Assembly: GCA_951406725.2 (NCBI GenBank)
Contig: OX597837.1
Location: 4,340,001-4,404,000 of the forward strand
Direction: 5' to 3'
Source: Octopus vulgaris
Taxonomy: Eukaryota
Length of the DNA stretch: 64,000 bases
Part shown: piece by piece, positions 20,823 to 34,939 of the stretch
Layout of the letters: every line of letters starts with the position of its first letter
Numbering within the stretch: position 1 is the first letter of the stretch
Position numbers and translations under genes: made by a program
The notes under the pieces: generated by a model
Told to the model about the DNA's origin: nothing
What the model saw: only the letters and a program-made list of their open reading frames with translations
The model's database searches: none

Positions 20823-21921
20823 AAAACCTTTAAGGTGATTCCCTAACACAACCATTGTTCAATAACTACAAAAATGAAGGAATAATTTGATTTTTAATTA
20901 TTTACATTGAACTTAAGTTACGATATTGCTGTATTCAACTGATCTTAAGATTTGATTCTGTCACTATTGGGGTGATTGGTGGAACCTTTCCAGATACGTC
21001 TGGTGCATAGAAGACCCATTATATATTGGCGTTAACGTAATTAATGTACTGAACTAAATCAGAAAAAAAAAGAAACAGGCATTAATTAAAATGAAATACA
21101 TTGTGATGACTGGAATCTAATATCAAAGCTATTAATAGTACTCAAAAATTTCATGGGAGACAATTTATTTAAAAATTAATATACAGGTGCAGGAGTGGCT
21201 GTGTGGTAAGTAGCTTGCTAACGCACATGCGCAATTAGTCAGTTGCTTCCTGTTCAGCCAGAGTGGACGCGAGTCAATCAGCTCCGTCCAATTAAAGAAA
21301 AAAGACCAAAAGCGGAAAGTTGTCGAGGTAAGTGATTTTGTTTATTGTGAGTTGGGCATAATTTATTGCGTGCCAATTATTATTTCAGTAAGTTGTGTCC
21401 AACTCTGAGACAATTTCGCCTGCTCTCGGCGGCTGCCGTTTTTGTGTTCATTGAAAAAAAAAAAGAAAAAACAGTGGAGGGGCGTATCCTCAGAATTCAA
21501 TACAGTTACTGTTAAAATTACCGTTGGCGGTAGCCAGTGCTGTATTTGGGTTTGTTGAATTTATTCCCTTGTCAGAGTACTTCGCAAGAAAATTATAAAA
21601 ATAAGCCACTATTGGATTACCTTTCGGACCCATTTTTGTGGAGGTTGTGTTGCAGTTGCGGCGTTCCAGGTTCAACCCAGGCCGGGAGTACCGCAAGGCC
21701 AGAATATTTTGCTGTGTTTTTTCTGTTTATTAACTTTCTTTTGAACTTCATTTAACCCCCCCTTTTGTTTTTTTTCTTTATTGCGACTTTCCGTTAATTT
21801 CTTCCCTTCTGTTGTGCTTTCTCCTTTTTGTTTTTTCAAAAATCTATCAAATTTTATTTGGACTTTTGAACTTTTTTCTTCCTGCTTTTGAGTTTAATTT
21901 GAATATATTTAAAAAAAAAAC

Positions 21922-22788
21922 ATGGCAATGAAAAATAACAAAATTTTGGAGTGGGAAATCATACCCCCTAAAAAGTGGTTAAAAGACCGTGAAGATAGGA
22001 CGGTGGTGTTGAGAACCTACTCCAAGGCACTTGACACCATTGCCCTATTCGAAAAGACGGCAATTGAAAAGGAGTTGGAAGAGTATTTGCCAACAATTAA
22101 ATTCATTTCCAAGGGTGTCAAATATGCAACGGTGTGGTTGCTATTTGACACCCCCGAAGAGGCTTGCAAATTTGCTAGCAAATCCCTGGAGGGTAAGGAA
22201 ATCTTATTCCTGCCCACGTACAAAAAAAAGAAATTGATGAAAGCTTGGATTTGCGGACTGCCACCCGACATAGAACCCGAGTGGATAGAGGAGACTATCC
22301 GCCGGGGTCTGGGTGACAGCGAAACTAAGCTCCTCAATGTAAAAGTTCTTCCTGCGGCTGCTTGGGTTGGGTCAAAAGCAATTTTGACCCTGTGGACCCA
22401 ATCAGCCAATCTGGTTCTTCCAGATTTTTTGAAAATGGCCGGGTGTAGGTACCCGGTGATGCTTGAGGGTCGCCCCCCTAAGTGTCATCGGTGCTTGGAG
22501 TCCGGCCACATAAATAAGAACTGTCCTCGGGAACAAAATAGGATCCCGGAACAGTTAAGTAAAACCCCTCTAGAAGAGGGAACGATAACGGCCGAGAAAG
22601 CAGAGGACTCCTCAAACAGAGGCCGAAAGAGGAAGGTGAGCAACAATGGGTGCTCACCAAAGGATAATAGGGATGAGGAGAGGAAGGCGAATCTTCCAGC
22701 CACGGAGGAGACGCACCCTCCCTCAGTTGAAAAGGGAAAAAAAAGAAAAAGAGGAAGAAAAACGGGACATTACCGGCTGTCAGTGTAG
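21922..22788 (+). CDS. L1/Tx1-type ORF1 nucleic-acid-binding protein (RRM-like region and CCHC zinc knuckle)
   Basis: 288-aa ORF with GRPPK-CHRCLESGHINKNC (CX2CX4HX4C); collinear with ORF1 of the Tx1 element. Confidence 0.85.
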   Translation: MAMKNNKILEWEIIPPKKWLKDREDRTVVLRTYSKALDTIALFEKTAIEKELEEYLPTIKFISKGVKYATVWLLFDTPEEACKFASKSLEGKEILFLPTYKKKKLMKAWICGLPPDIEPEWIEETIRRGLGDSETKLLNVKVLPAAAWVGSKAILTLWTQSANLVLPDFLKMAGCRYPVMLEGRPPKCHRCLESGHINKNCPREQNRIPEQLSKTPLEEGTITAEKAEDSSNRGRKRKVSNNGCSPKDNRDEERKANLPATEETHPPSVEKGKKRKRGRKTGHYRLSV

Positions 22789-23159
22789 CACCGGAATGTC
22801 CCGGAACTACGTCGGTTGGGGTTGTGCCACCGACAAGAGAAGGAATACCGTTGGCGGAAACTGTGCCGCCAACGAAAGAACTGAACGTATTGGTCCTCTT
22901 CTATAGAGGAGGAGAAATTGAAAAAGTGATGGAAGAGCACTACAAGGGAGCACCTTTAGCCTTCACACAGGACCCCGAATGGCCTCCGCAGGTAGCTGTG
23001 GAGGCCGTGGCGTTCGACGTGACGCTTGGGCTAAAGGAGCTCAATGAAGATTATAACTTGGTCCCGGGCGACGCGAACTCGGAACTTGACTACGTTCTGA
23101 GGGAGGCGTGGTTGATGGTGGAGGGCGCGGGCACAAGCTATTTCGAGGACGATATGTAA
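22732..23159 (+). CDS. -1 frame C-terminal extension of ORF1 (fused product ~412 aa)
   Basis: The -1 frame is open from the GGGAAAAAAAAG run through KKRKKNGTLPAVSVAPEC..VVPPTREG..FEDDM*. Confidence 0.6.
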
Positions 23160-23180
23160 TTATTGAACTGTTATTATTAG

Positions 23181-23303
23181 TAATGGACTTAAGTCCAAAA
23201 ATTGAAAAATTGTAAGAGGATTAATACCTCGTTTTGTATTAATAATGGACTGCTAAGTCCAAAAATTGGAAAAATTGTAAGAGGTTTAATACCTCGTTTT
23301 GTG
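23181..23303 (+). repeat. Tandem duplication (~60 bp x2) in the 3' UTR
   Basis: TAATGGACT..AAGTCCAAAAATTG..AAAATTGTAAGAGG.TTAATACCTCGTTTTGT occurs twice. Confidence 0.9.
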
Positions 23304-25474
23304 TTTATCTTTAAGAAGAACAATGTTTTAGAGAAGCGAAAGCCGGCGGGCGCTTTTTGTCTTCTCCCATCCTTATCATCTTTCTTTCATTATCATTCAC
23401 TTCATTAATGTCCTCGTCCAGTCCGCAAAGCTAACTTAATCTGTGTACTGCCTTTATGGCAAATGTTTTGAAATAAAGTAGCTTGTTTACCAACCACATG
23501 GTTCCGTGTTCAGTCCCACTGCGTGGTACCTTGGGCAAGTGTCTTCTACTATAGCCGCAGGCCGACCAAAGCCTTGTGAGTGGATTTGGTAGACGGAAAC
23601 TGAAAAGAAGCCCGTCGTATATATGTATATATATATATGCGCGTGTGTGTTTGTGTGTCTGTGTTTGTCCGCCTAGCATTGCTTGACAACCGATGCTGGT
23701 GTGTTTATGTCCCCGTTACTTAGCGGTTCGGCAAAAGAGACCGATAGAATAAGTACTGGGCTTACAAAGAATAAGTCCCGGGGTCGAGTTGCTCGATTAA
23801 ATGCGGTGCTCCAGCATAGGCGCAGTCAAATGACTGAAACAAGTAAAAGAGTATAAGAGAGTTGAGAAGAAATATGCGTTTTGGTAGGTTTGTGACAATT
23901 CTGAATATGTTTATATATTATTAAGCATCTTAAGCTAAGCCTAGTTTAACACTTGTCGGCATAATATTGGTAACTGGAGAGAAAATAGGAGTTTAGTGAA
24001 TGCACACAGACTGGCGTGATAAATTTAAAAAAGTGACGGAGGAAAATTCTCAAGTGTTTCTATGGCATAGAAAAGTAGTTTTAAATTGGCTGCTAACACA
24101 TTTGATTTGGAGACAAAAGTAATTTTTTATTAATATGAATGACCCAGTTAAAAGAAACGAGGAAAAGAATTACATTATCAATCCTGATCACGAAAAGTAG
24201 GAGGGGTAACTTCAGCATTTAAGTTAATTAATTTTAATTTAATATAGAAAGCAATGATAAATGAGAGTTTTCACCGCAGAACTCTGTTGTTAATTAGTTA
24301 AAATTACACAAATTAACATTTGCATTGAATATAATACAGTTAACTAATTCGTGATATTGCAATTAACCTTATCAATGAATTTATACTTCTTCTTAATAAG
24401 GTCTTAATAATCAATTCATTAGAATAAAACCTTGCCAAATAAAAAGGAGACCCTTAAATTACCATATTAAAGAAAATAATCCCAGGTAATGGCCTATAAT
24501 TAGGAGCTCCCTGAGATCCCAAATATCTGTAAAATTATATTTCAAGGTGTCAGCCCCAAATTTCTTGAGCAAAATTATGTATTTACATCATATTTTGCAT
24601 ACAGATGCAATTTTAAATAATCAATTTTCTCTGCTTCACTAAATTCTTTATGTTATTAATTATATATTTAATTATGTTATCATGTCCACTATTATCAATT
24701 CCATACATGCAAACGAAGTCGCTAATGATAATTCCTGCTTTAGTTAACTTACATAACTCCGTTGATCCTATCATAACTATCACAATCACGTGTAATTTCC
24801 TCAATAAATATAAGCAGTAAGTATCCAATTAAAATAAGGTGCTGTAATTATTTAATGTATGTTTATTTAGTGTACCGGGCTAAATCAAAATCCCCCAATC
24901 GATCCTGAAAAGGTGTTAGTACATACATATCCTGAAATAAACTACCATGAAATAATTATAGTTACAAGACCAGCAAGAAATAGCAACTAAATCACATACT
25001 GCCTTAAAAAGGAAGATATATATTGAATAATATCCTGATCTGAAATGATTGAACGAAGAGTGGGACGGTCGTGGTAGGAAAGCCTTTGGTTATATCTCTG
25101 CTGAATCAGGCCTCACTTTGGAGAAAAAAATCATCAAAAAGGTGAAAACAAACAAGCAACTTAAAGCTCCATGGGCTCATCAAACGAAACATGCTCGTTC
25201 GGCGTAAGTAACGGAATGGTGGGATTTCAAAATCATTCCTAGAAATGGGGATGCTATTGGTCAAAGCAGAAGATTTTAGTTACTAGCCAGAATCAAATGA
25301 AATAGCTAAATAGTAAATAAAAATATATATTAGACATTTACTCGAAAATTATCACATTTTATCATTTTGGCAATATTCAGCGCTATTCCGTGCTAAATAT
25401 TTCTTTCTTCTAGAAACAAAAGACCTGAAAAGTTTTAGGAGATAGGGATAGATGATTATATCGAACGCGTGCAC

Positions 25475-27584: not shown

Positions 27585-27760
27585 GGACGTGCTGTCACTT
27601 CGGCTCCGAAGGTAATCGTTTATTTTGACTATTTATAGCCCATATTTTGTGTACATTTTTGCAAATAAGGTGTGTAAGGCACCCAACTTTCGTTTGAGTG
27701 CTTTTCCAAGGGAGTTTCAACCCCATTTCATTTCTGTAATTTTCTTCTCGACATTAGAAA

Positions 27761-29954
27761 ATGTCGAGATATTTTATTGTAGAACGCTGGTCGCGTTCCT
27801 TTATGGACCAGCATTTTCCTAGTTTGGAAACGCTAGGAGAAGAAAAAAAGAACTCATGCACGCAAAGTGCAAATCTAAATGACGTGGCAGTGAACGCTGC
27901 AACCACTTGCGATAACAACACTGTCACCACCACCACTAACAACAACAACAACAAGACTACTACTGCTACCACCACCGCCTCCACCACCACCACCACCGCC
28001 ACCTCATCCACTACCTCAACTAACAACAACAATAACAATGACAACAAGAATAACAACATTTGCGCCACCATTTCGACATCTGCTGCCACGGCTGTCTCTT
28101 CTGCCACTGACACCACCGCCAACAACAATAACAACAACAACAATTCCGTTCAGACCTTGTTTCATCCAACAACAAGAACTGAAGGGAATAAACAAAAGAC
28201 TGTGACCACCAAACAAATTGACAAAAGCTGCTCGAATGCAGGGATAAACTATGCAAGTAATTTTCCACCCCTTCCTACTTGCACAATCAAACCAAATACA
28301 CCGATTTTACCAACTGCAGCCAACAACAACATCACCACCAGCAACAACAATAACAAAACAACAACAAATTTCGCCGAGGCGATAAAAGAAAAAAAGACAA
28401 CAGTATATTTTACTGCACAACAAATAAAAGATACGAACATTTTAATAACGGAAGTAGATGGTATAGTAAAAATAAACATACCACAAGAAATATTAGAAGA
28501 TGAAAAGAAAAGAACAATTATATATAAAATAATTAATAAGAAAACAAAAAGTCCAGAGAAGGCTAACACAAGCAAAATCGAAAAATGCTTGAAACCCATC
28601 TGGAACTACAAAGAGTATGTGACCTGGTGGAACAAGTTCGCACACATACAAGTGGTCTTCCACACTGAAGAGTTAGCAAGACGTTTCTCAACGCTAACTC
28701 TTCATTCAGATGAACTTCAACTAACACCAAGCTATCGTGGACAGAAAGTGACTAAGATCACTTTAAACAATGTCCCAAAAATAGCTAACAATCTATGGCT
28801 AGTAAAGGCCTTATGTGTGAAAATGGAAGATTTCACAATTTTAGAAACTACGGTCACGGAGCACAAAAACTGGGTGGGAAAAAAGTAGAATTTCTACTAC
28901 ATATAAACCAAGAGGACATAAAGAAAATACCCACCCAGATATGTGTATCAGAAGACCACAAGTTGTATGTGGTCGTCGATGGCAGAAGACCACGTTGCTA
29001 CATATGCGGCAGTGAGCAACACCTAAAAAAAGACTGCAAATATGCCGCAAGAAAACAACAGCAACAACAACAGCAGCCGGAAAAAACAAATAAACCAGCT
29101 TTACTACCCACACCACGTTTTGCACGAACAGGACTAATCACAGAAAATCAACAAAAAACAAACCTCACCAACCAAACATCCACACCAACCGCAGCAAGAA
29201 CAGAAGCAACACCAACAACAACAACAACCAAGAATAAACCAACTCCCAAACCAAGGGCATCTGCCAAAAAGACACTCATCGAAAATGAAGAAACAATTAC
29301 TAGTCCAAATCCCCACAAAATTGACACCCCAAACAACACAACAATACCTACAATCACTCAAACACAAAATACCCACACCCCACCTCCAAAACCGCATACA
29401 CCACAACCTAACGCTCACCAACCAACACCAACAACACAGTCTACAATAGACCCCAATATTTTCCCTGTCCCAAGCTCTGATTTCTCTGATTTGTCATTAG
29501 ACGAAGAAGACACAGAAGATTGGCAAATAGCCACAGGGGGGAGAAGAAAAAGGGGAAAAAAAGAAAAGAAAATATAACAAACAAAGCAGGAAGATTCACC
29601 ACTCCCGAAACAAAAACATCCACAGAAAACAAACACATCAACACAAACACACCATCATGAAACCCCCCAACAATGTTGACAGCCATAAACACAAACAACC
29701 ACGACCTAATGGAACACATTAGGTCAAACACCAACATAACTGAAAACGACATAAAAACAAATAACCACCCACGCACAACACCACCACAACACATTAAAAT
29801 AATACACGTAACACAGAACACATACAGCACCCTGAAATCTCTTTACCCTGATGCAGTAGGGAGATTTCAAAAGTATTCATCAAAGAAACTATACAAAAAC
29901 CTCATGGAAGAAGACTGTGAGGTGAAAAACAAAAGACTTTCGAACAACAAGTAA
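27761..29954 (+). pseudogene. Tx1 ORF1 (Thr/Asn-rich N-terminus, RRM-like region, CCHC knuckle), broken by two -1 shifts and one TGA
   Basis: ORFs 27761-28888, 28795-29577 (GRRPR-CYICGSEQHLKKDC) and 29673-29954; shifts at about 28880 and 29555; TGA at 29658. Confidence 0.85.
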
Positions 29955-30022
29955 CCTTTTCTCTCTCTCTTTCCTATTTTGCACTTTCTTTTCGTGTGTA
30001 AAACACAATTTTTTATCGGAAC

Positions 30023-33000
30023 ATGCTCAGAATAGGCAGTATAAATGTACGTGGCTTGGGGTCGCCTTGGAAACAAGGCTACCTGTTAAATGACATCAAG
30101 TCACTAAATCTGAATATCATAGCCATCAGTGAGACCAGACTCCACAGCTCGCGGGCACTCCGGCACAGTTTCGGTACACATTTCAACATTTATTTTTCTC
30201 CGTGTCTACCGAGAATGGGCGGAGGTGGCACCGCGGTGCTTCTCCGGAAGAGTCTGGATCTCAAAGTAAGAGCAATTTTCCTAGACCCGGAGGGTAGGCT
30301 GGTCGTTTTGGATGTCGATGGCAGCAATGAGTGTGCTTTTCGACTGATAGCAGTTTATGCTCCGTCCTTAACAGGCCGACCAGATTTCTTTCGACGTCTA
30401 GAGTCTTTCATGGGAACGTCTCGTCCTTTACTTTTAGTGGGGGATTGGAATGCCACCCTGGACACGCATCTAGACTACGTGGGCAGAGATAGCAATAGAA
30501 GGGGATGCAAATGCCTCAAAGACCTGCTCAGACGTTTCCAACTGTCTGACAGGTACCGACTGGACCACCCGAATGTGCCAATGTGGACATGGAGTAACCG
30601 CATCGGGTCGTCCAGATCATACTTAGATAGAGTATTCTGTAGGACAATAGATAAAAATAGTGTAGGTTGTCCACAATTTCATATAGTCAGTTACACAGAT
30701 CACAAGTTTGTGACTTGTACACTTGACTTAGATAAGACACATAGGCAGGGTCCTGGTTACTGAAAACTGAACGCGTCTTTTACAGCACGACAGGTTTACA
30801 GGGACCGGATCAGCACATTAGTTAAGAGAGCTTTGACGGGTACCATCATCAACAACAGATGGTGGTATGCCCTAAAAAAAGCAATTAAAGTAGAATCAGT
30901 CAGATACAGTAAAGCCCTAGCATTAGACCGAAATAGAATAGAGGGAGAATTAGTTAAGGTTTTAGAAGAGGCACTTAGAACTGGCATCGCGTCCAACGTG
31001 CTGGCGGCGAGATTGGCCCTCGACCAACACCTCAACGCCAAACACGAGGGATGCGTTGTCAGAGCTAGGATGCGTGCTCTGAGGAACGAAGGAGTTGGAG
31101 CCGCCCAAGAGGCCCGAGTGGTGGAGACGCAACGAGGCAACAGAGCCACCATCAAGTCTCTTATAGATGAACAGGGGCGCGAATTGCTCGAGCCTAAAAG
31201 GATGTGTGGGGCTTTTCAACAACACTTCACCCAACTGTTTGGGACAAGTGGTGGGTCAGAACGCAGAGTGGACTTTAGTGCCTGCCTTGCTACGACTCTC
31301 AGCAAGAGAGGTGGAGTCTTGTGAAAGGCCTATCACAGCTGCGGACGTACAGGATGCGATGGTAGGCTGCGCGAGAGTATTATAAAACGGGAGTATTCCT
31401 GCTTTTGTAAAGCGAGGAGCAGTAGCACTGATTAAGAAAGACCCAAACAAGGGGGACGTCATAGATAATTTCAGGCCCATCACTCTCCTCAATGCAGATT
31501 TGAAAATTTTGGCCAAGGTGTTAGCCGAGAGGTTGGCGCTTGTCATCAAGAAACTAATCGACAAGGCGCAAACATGCGCCGTGCCGGGTAGAAGTATTCA
31601 TGACAACCTCCATCTGATGCGCTACATCATAGACAGGGTAGTTAAGAATCCTGGCATGGGTGGGGCGCTGATCAATTTGGATCAATCAAAAGCTTTCGAT
31701 AGGGTAGACCATCACTACTTGGAGGCTGTCCTTAAAGCGTCTGGTTTCGGTCCAGTTTTCCGCGGTTGGATCGCTGCCTTATACAGCGGCATCCGCTCAG
31801 TAGTTCGCGTAAATGGTCATCTATCCAGACCTTTTAACATCATGCGTTCGGTTCGTCAGGGATGCCCCCTCTCATCGCTCCTGTATGTATTGACTCTTGA
31901 GCCACTACTGCGGAAACTGGCGACGCTGAGGGGCATCCAACGAGAGCTGGGATGCGGGAGGAGCGTGTCTGCATACGCGGATGACGTCACCGTCATAGTG
32001 TCGAGCTACAAGCACATCGAACTGGTCGGCGAGACACTAAAAGAATACGAAGCGGTAACGGGAGCAAAAATTAACCGGGAAAAGTCAGTGGGCTTGCGGC
32101 TCGGTACCTGGAGAAGCAGGCCCATGCCGTCCAACAGCGACTCCATCGTGGGACGCTGGACGGACGGACCGGTTAAATTGCTCGGGGCCTGGTTCGGTCC
32201 GGACCTCTAAATGGAGAAGAACTGGGGCGAGATAACGACTAGGGTGGCTACTCTCACCCAGAAATGGACTGAGAGAAAGCTATCCCTAAAACGTCGGGCG
32301 GGGGTGGCGAACGCGTACATCGCATCCGCCATCGAGTATCGTCTGACCGTCGTGCCTTGTCCCGACCCTACCATCACCAAACTGGAACGTATACTCTTCC
32401 GCTTCTTGTGGAAGGGAAACGTTCCGATGGTTAGGCGATCCATTTGCTGTCAACACCCGCTAAATGGAGGGCTGGGCATGCCGTGGTTGATGATGCGCAG
32501 ACATGCGCTGAGACTGCGACATCTCCGGCGCTTCATAGACAACGGTGAACAGGTGTGGTCGCCTTTTGTGCGGCGCGCTTTCCCGCAGCTCGTCTCCTTG
32601 GACGAACTACAGTCATGGATCAAGCAGAGGCCGAGGCTAGGCGAATGGCACCGCGAGTGTCGCGTTGCTCTCAAGCAACTCTGCCGTCCGGGATCGAACT
32701 TGTGCGACTCCATCACAACAAAGGCATTCTATAGAGGATTAGTGGAAGGGAGGTGCGACGACGAACTCGGACAGAGTCTGGGCGTCGACGAGGAACACCT
32801 GACCCGCCTGTTCAGGACAACTTTCGGACCGGGACCTATGAACAATCACCAAATATCCCTGGCCTGGTAGTGCTATCGAGAAGCATTACCTGTTCGGGAT
32901 AAGCTCTACAGACACGGTTCCAGACACACTGGACCGATTTGCCCGAGATGCGGTCAGAGCGACGAAACCGTTCTGCACGCACTCGTGCAATGTCCAACCA

Positions 33001-33358
33001 TTTCAGACCTGTGGGCTTATGCCGAGCGGCTGCTGACACGTGTGGGACGAATCCGCCTATCGGCCGAGTCTATCGTGAGAATTGCTCCGCCCCCTTCCTT
33101 CAACCGGGAAGGCAAGGCAGTTTTCATCGTACTGGTGGCCATGGTGAAAGAATGTGTGTGGTGGACCCGAGCGAAAGGATTAGAGACAAACACTTACCTC
33201 TCTGGCCAATCGCTCATCAACTTTTTCAAGTACCACTTGAAAAGGAAGGTGAGAATGGAGAGGGAAGTTTTGTCTCGCGAAAGATTAAAAAAAGACGGGT
33301 GAATGTTGCAAAGATGGTGCGTGCGAGTGACGAAACCATTTTGAGCATGATCCTGTAG
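30023..33358 (+). pseudogene. Tx1 ORF2: AP endonuclease, reverse transcriptase, C-terminal zinc finger
   Basis: SINVRGL, ISET, VYAP, GDWN, SYLDRV, TDH (APE); FRPITLLNAD, LDQSKAFDRVDH, VRQGCPLS, YADD (RT); CPRCGQSDETVLHALVQC; stops at 30761, 32208 and 32868, frameshifts, and an apparent deletion near 31375. Confidence 0.95.
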
Positions 33359-33655
33359 ATCGTAAAAAAGAAAGAAAGAGAGCATTTTGATCTCATGTGG
33401 TTATTTCCTCCCTGACTGAGGTTCCCGTGGTCTTTTCTGTAGGCTTTTCTTCCCACGGATGAACCCAATCTTGTTTTATCAATGTTTTTATCATTATTTC
33501 TGTGATACACGATTTCTTTTCTTTTTTTCCTCCTCTCGATCCCTTTTGATCGCAATCTTACATTTATTTTCTTTTTTTTCCACCCTCGAAAAGAAAAGCT
33601 CTGCATTTGTATTTGTCCCCTCTGTATTCAGCCCTGTGTGGCTAATAAAAGAAAG

Positions 33656-33995: not shown

Positions 33996-34338
33996 ATCTA
34001 TCTATCTATGCGCCTACACACTTTATATTATACTATCTATATGATATCATATATTATATTTGATTATATTGAACAGCGAGTAGGAAATTGGCAGGACTAA
34101 AAGAGCAGCGAGCAAAATATGATGCAGTATTCAGGTAAGTATCTATCCGTTTTGGGATCGAACCTCGACCAAGTCAATTTTGCTGTTCACTCCACAGAAG
34201 TCGATGAAATAAAATACAAATCAAATATTGAAGTAGATTGAAATCGAATATGCCTTTCCCTTAAATAGCAAGTGTTGTACGGATGCTAGAAATCTTATTT
34301 TGAGCGTGGACAACGGATAGCAGAATCTGTACAGCCCC

Positions 34339-34939
34339 AAAGGCGGAGAGCTGGCAGAAACGTTAGCACGCTGGGCGAAATGCTGAGCGGTATTTCGTCT
34401 GCGTTACGTTGTGAGTTCAAATTCCGCCGAGGTCGACTTTGCCTTTCATCCTTTCGGGGTCGATAAATTAAGTACCAGTTACACACTGGGGTCGATGTAA
34501 TCGACTTAATACCTATGTCTGTCCTTGTTTGTCCCCTCTGTGTTTAGCCCCTTGTGGGTAATAAAGAAATAGGTATTTCGTCTGCCGCTACGTTCTGAGG
34601 TCAAATTCCGCCGAGGTCGAATTTGCCTTTCATCTTTTCGGGGTCGATAAATTAAGTACTAGTTACGCACTGGGGTCGATGTAATCAACTTAATCCGTTT
34701 GTCTGTCTTTGTTTGTCTTCTCTGTGTTTAGCCCCTTGTGGGTAGTAAAGAAATAGGTATTTCGTCTGCCGTTACGTTCTGAGTTCAAATTCCACCGAGG
34801 TCGGCTTTTCCTTTCATCCTTTCGGGGTCGATAAATTAAGTGCTAGTTACGCATTGGGGTGGATGTAATCGACTTAATTCCTTTGTCTGTCCTTGTTTGT
34901 CCCCTCTCTGTTTAGCCCCTTGTGGGCAATATAGAAATA
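34339..34939 (+). mobile_element. Trimer of SINE family B with Tx1-type tails, single flanking TSD
   Basis: Units joined as tail AAAGAAAT|AGGTATTTCGTCTG at about 34571 and 34755; TSD AGAATCTGTACAGC at 34322 and 34940. Confidence 0.9.

Follow-up and report, generated by a model that had tools for sequence, protein, structure and literature searches.

What kind of element can occupy one exact base of a short interspersed element (SINE) while encoding only half of a retrotransposon, and what copies it? The question is raised by a 64,000-nucleotide stretch of the Octopus vulgaris genome (assembly GCA_951406725.2, contig OX597837.1, positions 4,340,001 to 4,404,000, forward strand; hereafter the window), in which a 2,268-bp stretch opening with AAGTAGCTTGCTAAC separates the tRNA-like head of a SINE from its body, which resumes at 23476. 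The insert carries the first open reading frame (ORF1) of a long interspersed element (LINE), and neither an endonuclease nor a reverse transcriptase (RT) was found inside it. The initial annotation had proposed a sequence-specific, non-autonomous element that borrows its ORF2 from a Tx1 relative. The present analysis indicates, with a probability of about 0.9, that the insert is an ORF1-only non-autonomous retrotransposon (hereafter the half-element) with hundreds of independent copies at a single base of the SINE head, likely copied by the endonuclease and RT of a 5.5-kb L1/Tx1-type partner.

Copies of the half-element at one base of a SINE head

The DNA search returned 19 near full-length matches and 20 matches starting at base 356 among the 40 candidates scored, and the same SINE base formed the 3′ end in all 30 loci read. 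An exact 24-mer of the 3′ end occurred 217 times in the genome (a reversed-pattern control, 0 times), and in 201 of these 217 cases AAGTAGCTT followed directly, excluding chance as the source of the association with the target. The copies were interstitial and spread over many chromosomes. In a junction census of every copy on chromosomes C1–C3 (n = 44), all 44 copies abutted the SINE site and none of the junctions contained poly(A). Forty-one of the copies were full length, 37 of them measuring 1.9–2.3 kb with a SINE head upstream and four having another element upstream, and one further copy was an internal-deletion form of 106 bp. No ORF2 lay between ORF1 and the 3′ end in any of the 44 copies; the single instance near them belonged to a separate element upstream of one copy. 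The predictions that the element is multicopy, sits at one SINE position and lacks endonuclease and RT in its other copies as well were thus borne out.

In the window, where all features described here are on the plus strand, the 5′ part of the host SINE head spans 21185..21207 and includes an A-box-like motif, TGGCTGTGTGG, at 21196–21206. The insertion follows directly, just after the A-box region as first described. The remaining host SINE (23476..23855) opens with the target AAGTAGCTTG, has a B-box-like motif at 23506–23517, and continues into a TA/TG microsatellite and the tail. Nine uninterrupted copies of the same SINE were found elsewhere in the window, and an exact search of the 2.8 Gb genome gave 66,274 exact empty target sites. 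Separation of the A box from the B box is likely to be a brake on SINE transcription, and under about 1% of the sites have been hit.

The SINE head, with its A-box and B-box-like motifs, aligned locally to a genomic tRNA gene with a z score of 10.4 (the best of 30 tRNA loci, in a comparison that took in 8 anticodon types only), and ARAGORN and Rfam scans made no tRNA call on it. The insertion site corresponds to the D-loop/A-box end of the tRNA-like head. This position, together with the observation that other elements such as Dada hit tRNA genes near the A box (available part of PMC8869645), would agree with a host tRNA gene as the true selected target and the SINE as an abundant decoy of the same sequence. 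However, each 3′ flank read was either SINE body or a stacked element. Furthermore, the older SINE variant AAGAAGCTTGCTTCC forms both the start and the 3′ flank of older elements, and AAGTAGCTTGCTAAC those of younger ones, suggesting that the elements track the SINE. Selection on a tRNA gene is therefore considered unlikely.

A fixed position might also be inherited, if one SINE had gained the insert once and the whole composite had then been amplified by the LINE that copies the SINE. Nearly every copy is complete and retains a SINE half on each side, a pattern uncommon for LINEs, and the raw Pearson Mantel correlation was positive (see below). However, among 66 copies divergence was 2.6% in the final 620 bp of the insert and 8.5% in the host SINE body, and a rank Mantel test between the two gave r = 0.02 (p = 0.39). 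Twenty pairs with identical 620-bp insert ends had SINE bodies 2–14% apart (mean 7%). The lack of correlation between SINE body and insert divergence suggests that the insertions were independent events, and the SINE halves and the insert did not share one genealogy. Head and body variants were associated across the insert (Fisher p = 0.012), which fits an origin of the two halves from a single pre-existing SINE. In addition, 5′-truncated copies (five from ORF1-only families and three from the partner) also joined the SINE head, with duplications of about 1–17 bp; such copies are necessarily separate events, and their same join to the head supports targeting. Identical inserts occurred in different SINE subfamilies, unrelated families including the 5.5-kb autonomous one used the same base, mixed stacks were present, and 22 T-runs would bar read-through by RNA polymerase III. 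Amplification of one composite unit has already been largely refuted by these data and is highly improbable.

The DNA transposon Dada was also considered as a model for the element itself and was rejected: no transposase was present, only an ORF with an RNA recognition motif (RRM) region and a CCHC knuckle, and the 5′-truncated copies with a fixed 3′ end indicate retrotransposition.

A probable autonomous partner and a separate ORF1 lineage

Searches for other 3′ ends at the SINE site gave 14 and 108 matches, with RT and zinc domains at two of the 14. The element recovered in this way is 5.45–5.73 kb long and occupies the same SINE site. Its ORF1 has 467 aa, and its ORF2 frame, 1,140 aa long, contains Exo_endo_phos, RVT_1 and zf-RVT domains. 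It had 108 exact 3′ ends, and the site was abutted in 30 of its 30 best matches and in 30 of 30 matches taken by position (the two sets overlap). Fourteen of 45 protein rows for its ORF2 were full length and stop-free at an identity of at least 91%. Partner copies (n = 30) lay 0.6% from their nearest neighbours and half-element copies 0.5% (27 of 30 entered), implying that both were recently and concurrently active. Among solved structures, L1 ORF2p was closest to the partner ORF2 (E = 7e-66), followed at a distance by R2 (E = 8e-22). The partner combines an APE endonuclease, RT and a C-terminal zinc domain in ORF2 with a type I ORF1 and sequence-specific insertion, and a type I ORF1 is described as consistent with Tx1 in the available text of PMC5203782. 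The anticipated element, with ORF2, this target and a common 3′ end, was thus found.

Two further observations concern this lineage. Three partner 3′ ends lie about 5.4 kb apart on contig C9 (G000:C9:2664555, 2669975 and 2675429), likely a tandem stack of autonomous copies, and an uninterrupted 1,138-aa ORF2 at G000:C6:37279573–37282968, 68% identical to that of the partner, represents another potentially active family. The initial suspect for the partner, L106, proved to be a divergent 3′ fragment of the half-element and was discarded.

A degraded L1/Tx1-type LINE lies close by in the window (27586–33655), and was considered as a possible source of the missing functions. It contains an ORF1 with a CCHC knuckle, an endonuclease, an RT and a zf-RVT domain, interrupted by several stops and frameshifts. 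Its ORF1 is homologous to that of the half-element (23% identity, E = 2e-9), and a similar GCC...GGC hairpin is found at its 3′ end, as would suit a donor of ORF2. However, it sits in a (TCTA)n microsatellite and not in a SINE, the endonuclease dictates the choice of target (available part of PMC4494074), and an active family with exactly the right target exists. Its ORF2 is 52–60% identical to that of the partner. The neighbour did not hold as the partner, and supply of ORF2 by this or another LINE is very unlikely; it is a relative of the partner and adds another target specificity to the lineage. At 34300–34800, the window also contains a different tRNA-like SINE in tandem copies; its tail, TTTGTCCCCTCTGTG...GCCCC...AATAAAGAAA, looks by eye like the 3′ ends of both the partner and the neighbouring LINE, and this SINE may be mobilised by the L1/Tx1-type lineage.

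ORF1 of the window copy spans 21922..23159 and would encode 412–414 aa if uninterrupted, with two predicted RRM domains (about residues 23–183), a CCHC knuckle (22483–22524), a basic linker and an acidic C-terminus. The RRM-like region and knuckle of the initial annotation were upheld, but its near-intact frame was not: one frameshift breaks the window copy into 288 aa and, in a different frame, 142 aa. The A-run at 22737–22744 has 8 A, compared to 10 A in an uninterrupted 414-aa copy. Such A-run breaks are frequent across the family, and part of them may be assembly errors. Among 135 protein matches, 25 retained a frame of at least 412 aa without stops.

No Pfam match was obtained for the two ORF1 halves of the window copy, and for intact copies only a sub-threshold zf-CCHC and no Transposase_22 match. 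The predicted fold of residues 1–205 showed two RRMs and the knuckle (mean pLDDT 73.7, 8 sequences). The top Foldseek matches of this model were tandem-RRM proteins (E = 4e-5), and the best VIA match was a single RRM (Z = 8.1). The protein is thus predicted to be a type I ORF1p, with two RRMs and a CCHC knuckle. Atlas clusters named CCHC-type and ZCCHC3-like proteins at 0.90–0.92, which is taken as a lead only.

The ratio of nonsynonymous to synonymous substitution (dN/dS) in the ORF1 core was 0.11–0.18 between families (dS 1.6–1.9). In two unsaturated pairs it was 0.13 and 0.18, and in a third close pair 0.45. The linker and the C-terminus were under looser constraint than the core. ORF1 is under purifying selection, the result of the dN/dS check proposed at the outset. 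In a tree of 22 rows, 17 half-element ORF1s formed one clade (support 100/99), apart from the autonomous ORF1s and including a protein from Octopus sinensis. The half-element has amplified as a family after the loss of ORF2, with ORF1 retained by selection. A 281-aa 'uncharacterized protein' of O. sinensis (P0004, XP_029652367.1; three accessions) is a half-element ORF1, 75% identical over the core. Word-indexed protein searches for ORF1 relatives returned only two O. sinensis proteins, a result that is limited by sensitivity and is not evidence of absence.

These data also bear on whether the half-element is simply a recent deletion derivative of the autonomous element, its ORF1 a decaying remnant. 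The two share a target and a related 3′ end, and their ORF1s are homologous (E = 2e-20). However, these ORF1s are only 27% identical, and blastn showed no similarity between half-element and partner beyond an A-run. A dN/dS far below 1, the separate half-element clade and the stop-free copies also disagree with decay, and among the 44 census copies there was no ORF2-bearing copy more than 90% identical in ORF1 and untranslated regions (UTRs). With only the 3′ hairpin shared and ORF1s so divergent, the half-element is not a recent deletion product; that origin is extremely improbable.

Junctions, the 3′ hairpin and a guild of families

The 5′ UTR of the window copy (21223..21921) belongs to type A. 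At least three types of 5′ end are exchangeable, their first ~355 bp being type-specific, and three such 5′ UTRs were seen in the half-element family. The 5′ UTR and the insert are rich in T-runs, making transcription by RNA polymerase II likely. The 3′ UTR (23160..23475) contains a ~62-bp tandem duplication (23175–23308), followed by a terminal 4-bp hairpin, TGCC-TTTAT-GGCA (23449..23461), common to the partner and all families at the site. It terminates in AATA without poly(A). The terminal AATAAA first described as part of the element is therefore a composite: only AATA is its own end, and the last AA is supplied by the target.

The flanks reported on either side, AAGTAGCTTGCTAAC at 21208–21222 and AAGTAGCTTGTTTAC at 23476–23490, were confirmed in sequence but are not a true 15-bp target duplication. 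Just 10 bp are identical, and positions 10–16 of the 5′ copy match the element subfamily and not the host SINE, so that the target-like 5′ end (21208..21222) consists of 10 bp equal to the 3′ flank plus a subfamily-inherited CTAAC. Sixteen of 18 type-C copies carry AAGTAGCTTCTTACC or a one-base variant at the 5′ end, whatever the SINE variant on the 3′ side; CTAAC predominates in type-A copies, and three copies share a variant with three Ts. In copy L006, a 16-bp target duplication precedes the element's own target-like start. The partly element-encoded 'duplication' suggests that the RNA likely opens with a target-like stretch able to anneal on the upstream side. Mini-elements also occur at the same SINE site, one of 106 bp with 5′ and 3′ ends only (L033) and one of 31 bp with the 3′ hairpin region only (L151).

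The last ~35 bases, including the hairpin, are all that the families at the site share. In 35 distinct ends, 95.7% of hairpin cells were paired and 7 were compensatory; 0 of 500 shuffles scored as high and all slid controls were lower. This covariation supports, without proving, a shared 3′ signal, and the hairpin is likely to be the recognition signal for ORF2p.

Under the proposed mechanism, RNA polymerase II would transcribe the half-element from its own exchangeable 5′ UTR, and ORF1p, with its two RRMs and zinc knuckle, would coat its own RNA in cis. The partner ORF2p would bind the 3′ hairpin in trans, nick the bottom strand of the SINE at 5′-CTT/AC-3′ and prime reverse transcription there. 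With less confidence, we suppose that the transcript runs a few bases into the SINE, AATA plus the AA of the target completing a poly(A) signal, and that its 3′ end pairs with the nicked primer, so that no poly(A) is copied. Such read-through and pairing would explain the missing poly(A), and R1 elements show a similar read-through effect. Likewise, the target-like 5′ end may anneal at the upstream side and favour seamless full-length insertion. With the 3′ copy of the site still usable, later elements would be able to stack behind earlier ones.

Several points weigh against this account of a partner-driven half-element. Mobilisation in trans by the partner ORF2p is inferred from the same target, the shared hairpin and the concurrent age. 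At about 35 nt the shared signal is short, and the test of the hairpin concerned 4 pairs in related sequences with the structure read from those same sequences. The partner is called L1/Tx1-type from its domains and its likeness to L1 ORF2p, and its membership in Tx1 proper is putative; no homologue named Tx1 was among the matches listed. The between-family dS of ORF1 is near saturation, and in family A the shared and private variants were alike (pN/pS, the same ratio for variants, 0.14 versus 0.24, p = 0.33; 13 copies, chosen for open frames). Two of the 44 census copies had no SINE head or recognisable junction on the 5′ side. The positive result of the first Mantel test (Pearson, 69 copies; r = 0.61, p = 0.009) was lost on removal of three outliers: L113, mis-anchored on an upstream element; L100, with an internal deletion; and L127, with a broken SINE body. 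L106 had been excluded before that test, and 66 of 70 copies were retained at the end. Finally, no transcript was shown, nor an empty allele of the window locus, where in four public runs the contigs break off at the SINE, those of other runs stop loose at 21185, and joints that skip the insert stem from other SINE copies.

The half-element is not the only ORF1-only family at this base. Most of 30 other ends read at the site came from further ORF1-only families. One of these, a 1.49-kb element (L156:21–1506; L271–L290), ended at the site in 20 of 20 loci (78–100% identical to the query), in none of which ORF2 preceded the end. Its ORF1 grouped with that of the partner (90/82, on a long branch), and it is likely to represent a second origin of an ORF1-only element. 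Chimeras joined the ORF1 start of another family to an A-type 3′ end. One chimeric subfamily (L046, L050, L051, L057, and L104, L108, L109, L115, L120, L121, L123) has a type-C 5′ UTR, a B-like ORF1 start (70% to the window element) and an A-type last 630 bp (95%).

In the older 1.49-kb family, 10 of 20 copies had another element directly behind them, compared to a rough site occupancy of 0.7%; among its 11 non-SINE flanks one was a microsatellite. In the young family A, upstream neighbours were present in 4 of 44 copies and downstream neighbours in none. Stack positions, and their frequency relative to occupancy, suggest that new insertions probably enter at the 3′ copy and favour sites already occupied. 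Stacking may also arise through local chromatin or read-through co-mobilisation. Dating of stack order by nearest-neighbour identity was uninformative. Two stacks are of note in themselves: L178:1493–9731 (G000:C1 near 29.27 Mb) holds three B-family half-elements followed by one A in a single SINE head, and L177:1909–9901 (minus strand) holds half-element C, the autonomous partner and half-element A.

A wider reading, for and against which we see about equal odds, is that the SINE head forms an interspersed 'telomere-like' niche. One site-specific L1/Tx1-type element would support a long-lived guild of ORF1-only parasites of at least two origins, which swap 5′ UTRs and ORF1 halves and track the turnover of SINE subfamilies with target-mimicking 5′ ends. 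These would re-insert at occupied sites some fifty times more than at empty ones, the element–target junction being the better target.

Relation to known elements and significance

The comparisons in this section follow the available portions of the cited papers. ORF1-only LINEs are listed for the Jockey (HeT-A), L1 (HAL1) and CR1 (Ag-Sponge) groups (PMC5786205), and the half-element, with ORF1p and neither endonuclease nor RT, belongs with them. HAL1 of mammals is likewise non-autonomous with ORF1p only, and arose more than once (PMC5753468, PMC5786205). The likeness to HAL1 drawn in the initial annotation is sound for this architecture but not for descent from a mammalian L1. In the strict sense HAL1 has a mammalian-type L1 origin and a type II, Transposase_22 ORF1p, whereas the octopus element has a type I ORF1p, no poly(A), one fixed target and an invertebrate host. 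Ag-Sponge, derived from CR1, is also an ORF1-only non-autonomous LINE, of a different clade, and the consulted portion of PMC5786205 mentions no target specificity for it.

HeT-A and the telomeric Jockey elements of Drosophila also include ORF1-only members that share a target with ORF2-bearing partners, form head-to-tail stacks and conserve ORF1, and among them ORF2 has been lost repeatedly and ORF1-only lineages have founded new families (PMC5537684, PMC13534243). This repeated loss is reported for telomeric and not for other Jockey elements of Drosophila (PMC13534243). By comparison, the octopus system is of L1/Tx1 type, uses an interspersed SINE target on all chromosomes, needs an endonuclease cut and has no evident host function; its interstitial copies, and a partner ORF2 closest to L1 ORF2p, place it outside the telomeric Jockey elements. 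By analogy, it likely works as HeT-A does beside TART, from L1/Tx1-type parts on a SINE target.

Tx1 families target DNA transposons, long terminal repeat elements, U2 and microsatellites, and have non-coding riders (PMC4494074). Tx1L in Tx1D, Tx1-Mar in Mariner-N4, Keno in U2, and SINEU share with the octopus system APE and RT, a multicopy element as the target of sequence-specific insertion, tandem insertions, and non-autonomous riders at that target (PMC4494074). By contrast, in the octopus the target is a SINE head, the riders encode a protein and outnumber the partner (217 versus 108 exact ends), and nearly every copy sits at the exact base. The available portion of PMC4494074 names neither a SINE target nor an ORF1-only rider. 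A 2026 octopus repeat annotation reports 13 active L1-Tx1 families, and its main text, as far as accessible, does not speak of target, nested insertion, ORF1 or non-autonomous elements (PMC13282606). The families at the SINE site may have been deposited in Repbase, Dfam or the repeat library of that study without a description of the target. A SINE-targeting Tx1 with ORF1-only riders was not found in the literature covered, which lay outside subscription journals and Repbase. ORF1-only LINEs and transposon-targeting Tx1 elements are each known; their combination was not found described.

Taken together, these results extend the ecology of ORF1-only elements to a further clade and a further phylum, where it centres on an interspersed SINE. 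This setting makes it testable why a parasite retains ORF1, with packaging in cis, while ORF2 can be borrowed. With an uninterrupted partner ORF2, more than 66,000 harmless base-precise sites and a very short cis signal, target recognition, trans-mobilisation and full-length integration become directly assayable. If the niche reading is true, the sharing of one target, and not telomere biology, would drive the repeated loss of ORF2, and the system would provide a compact integrase, RNA-templated and precise to the base, with a cis signal of 35 nt.

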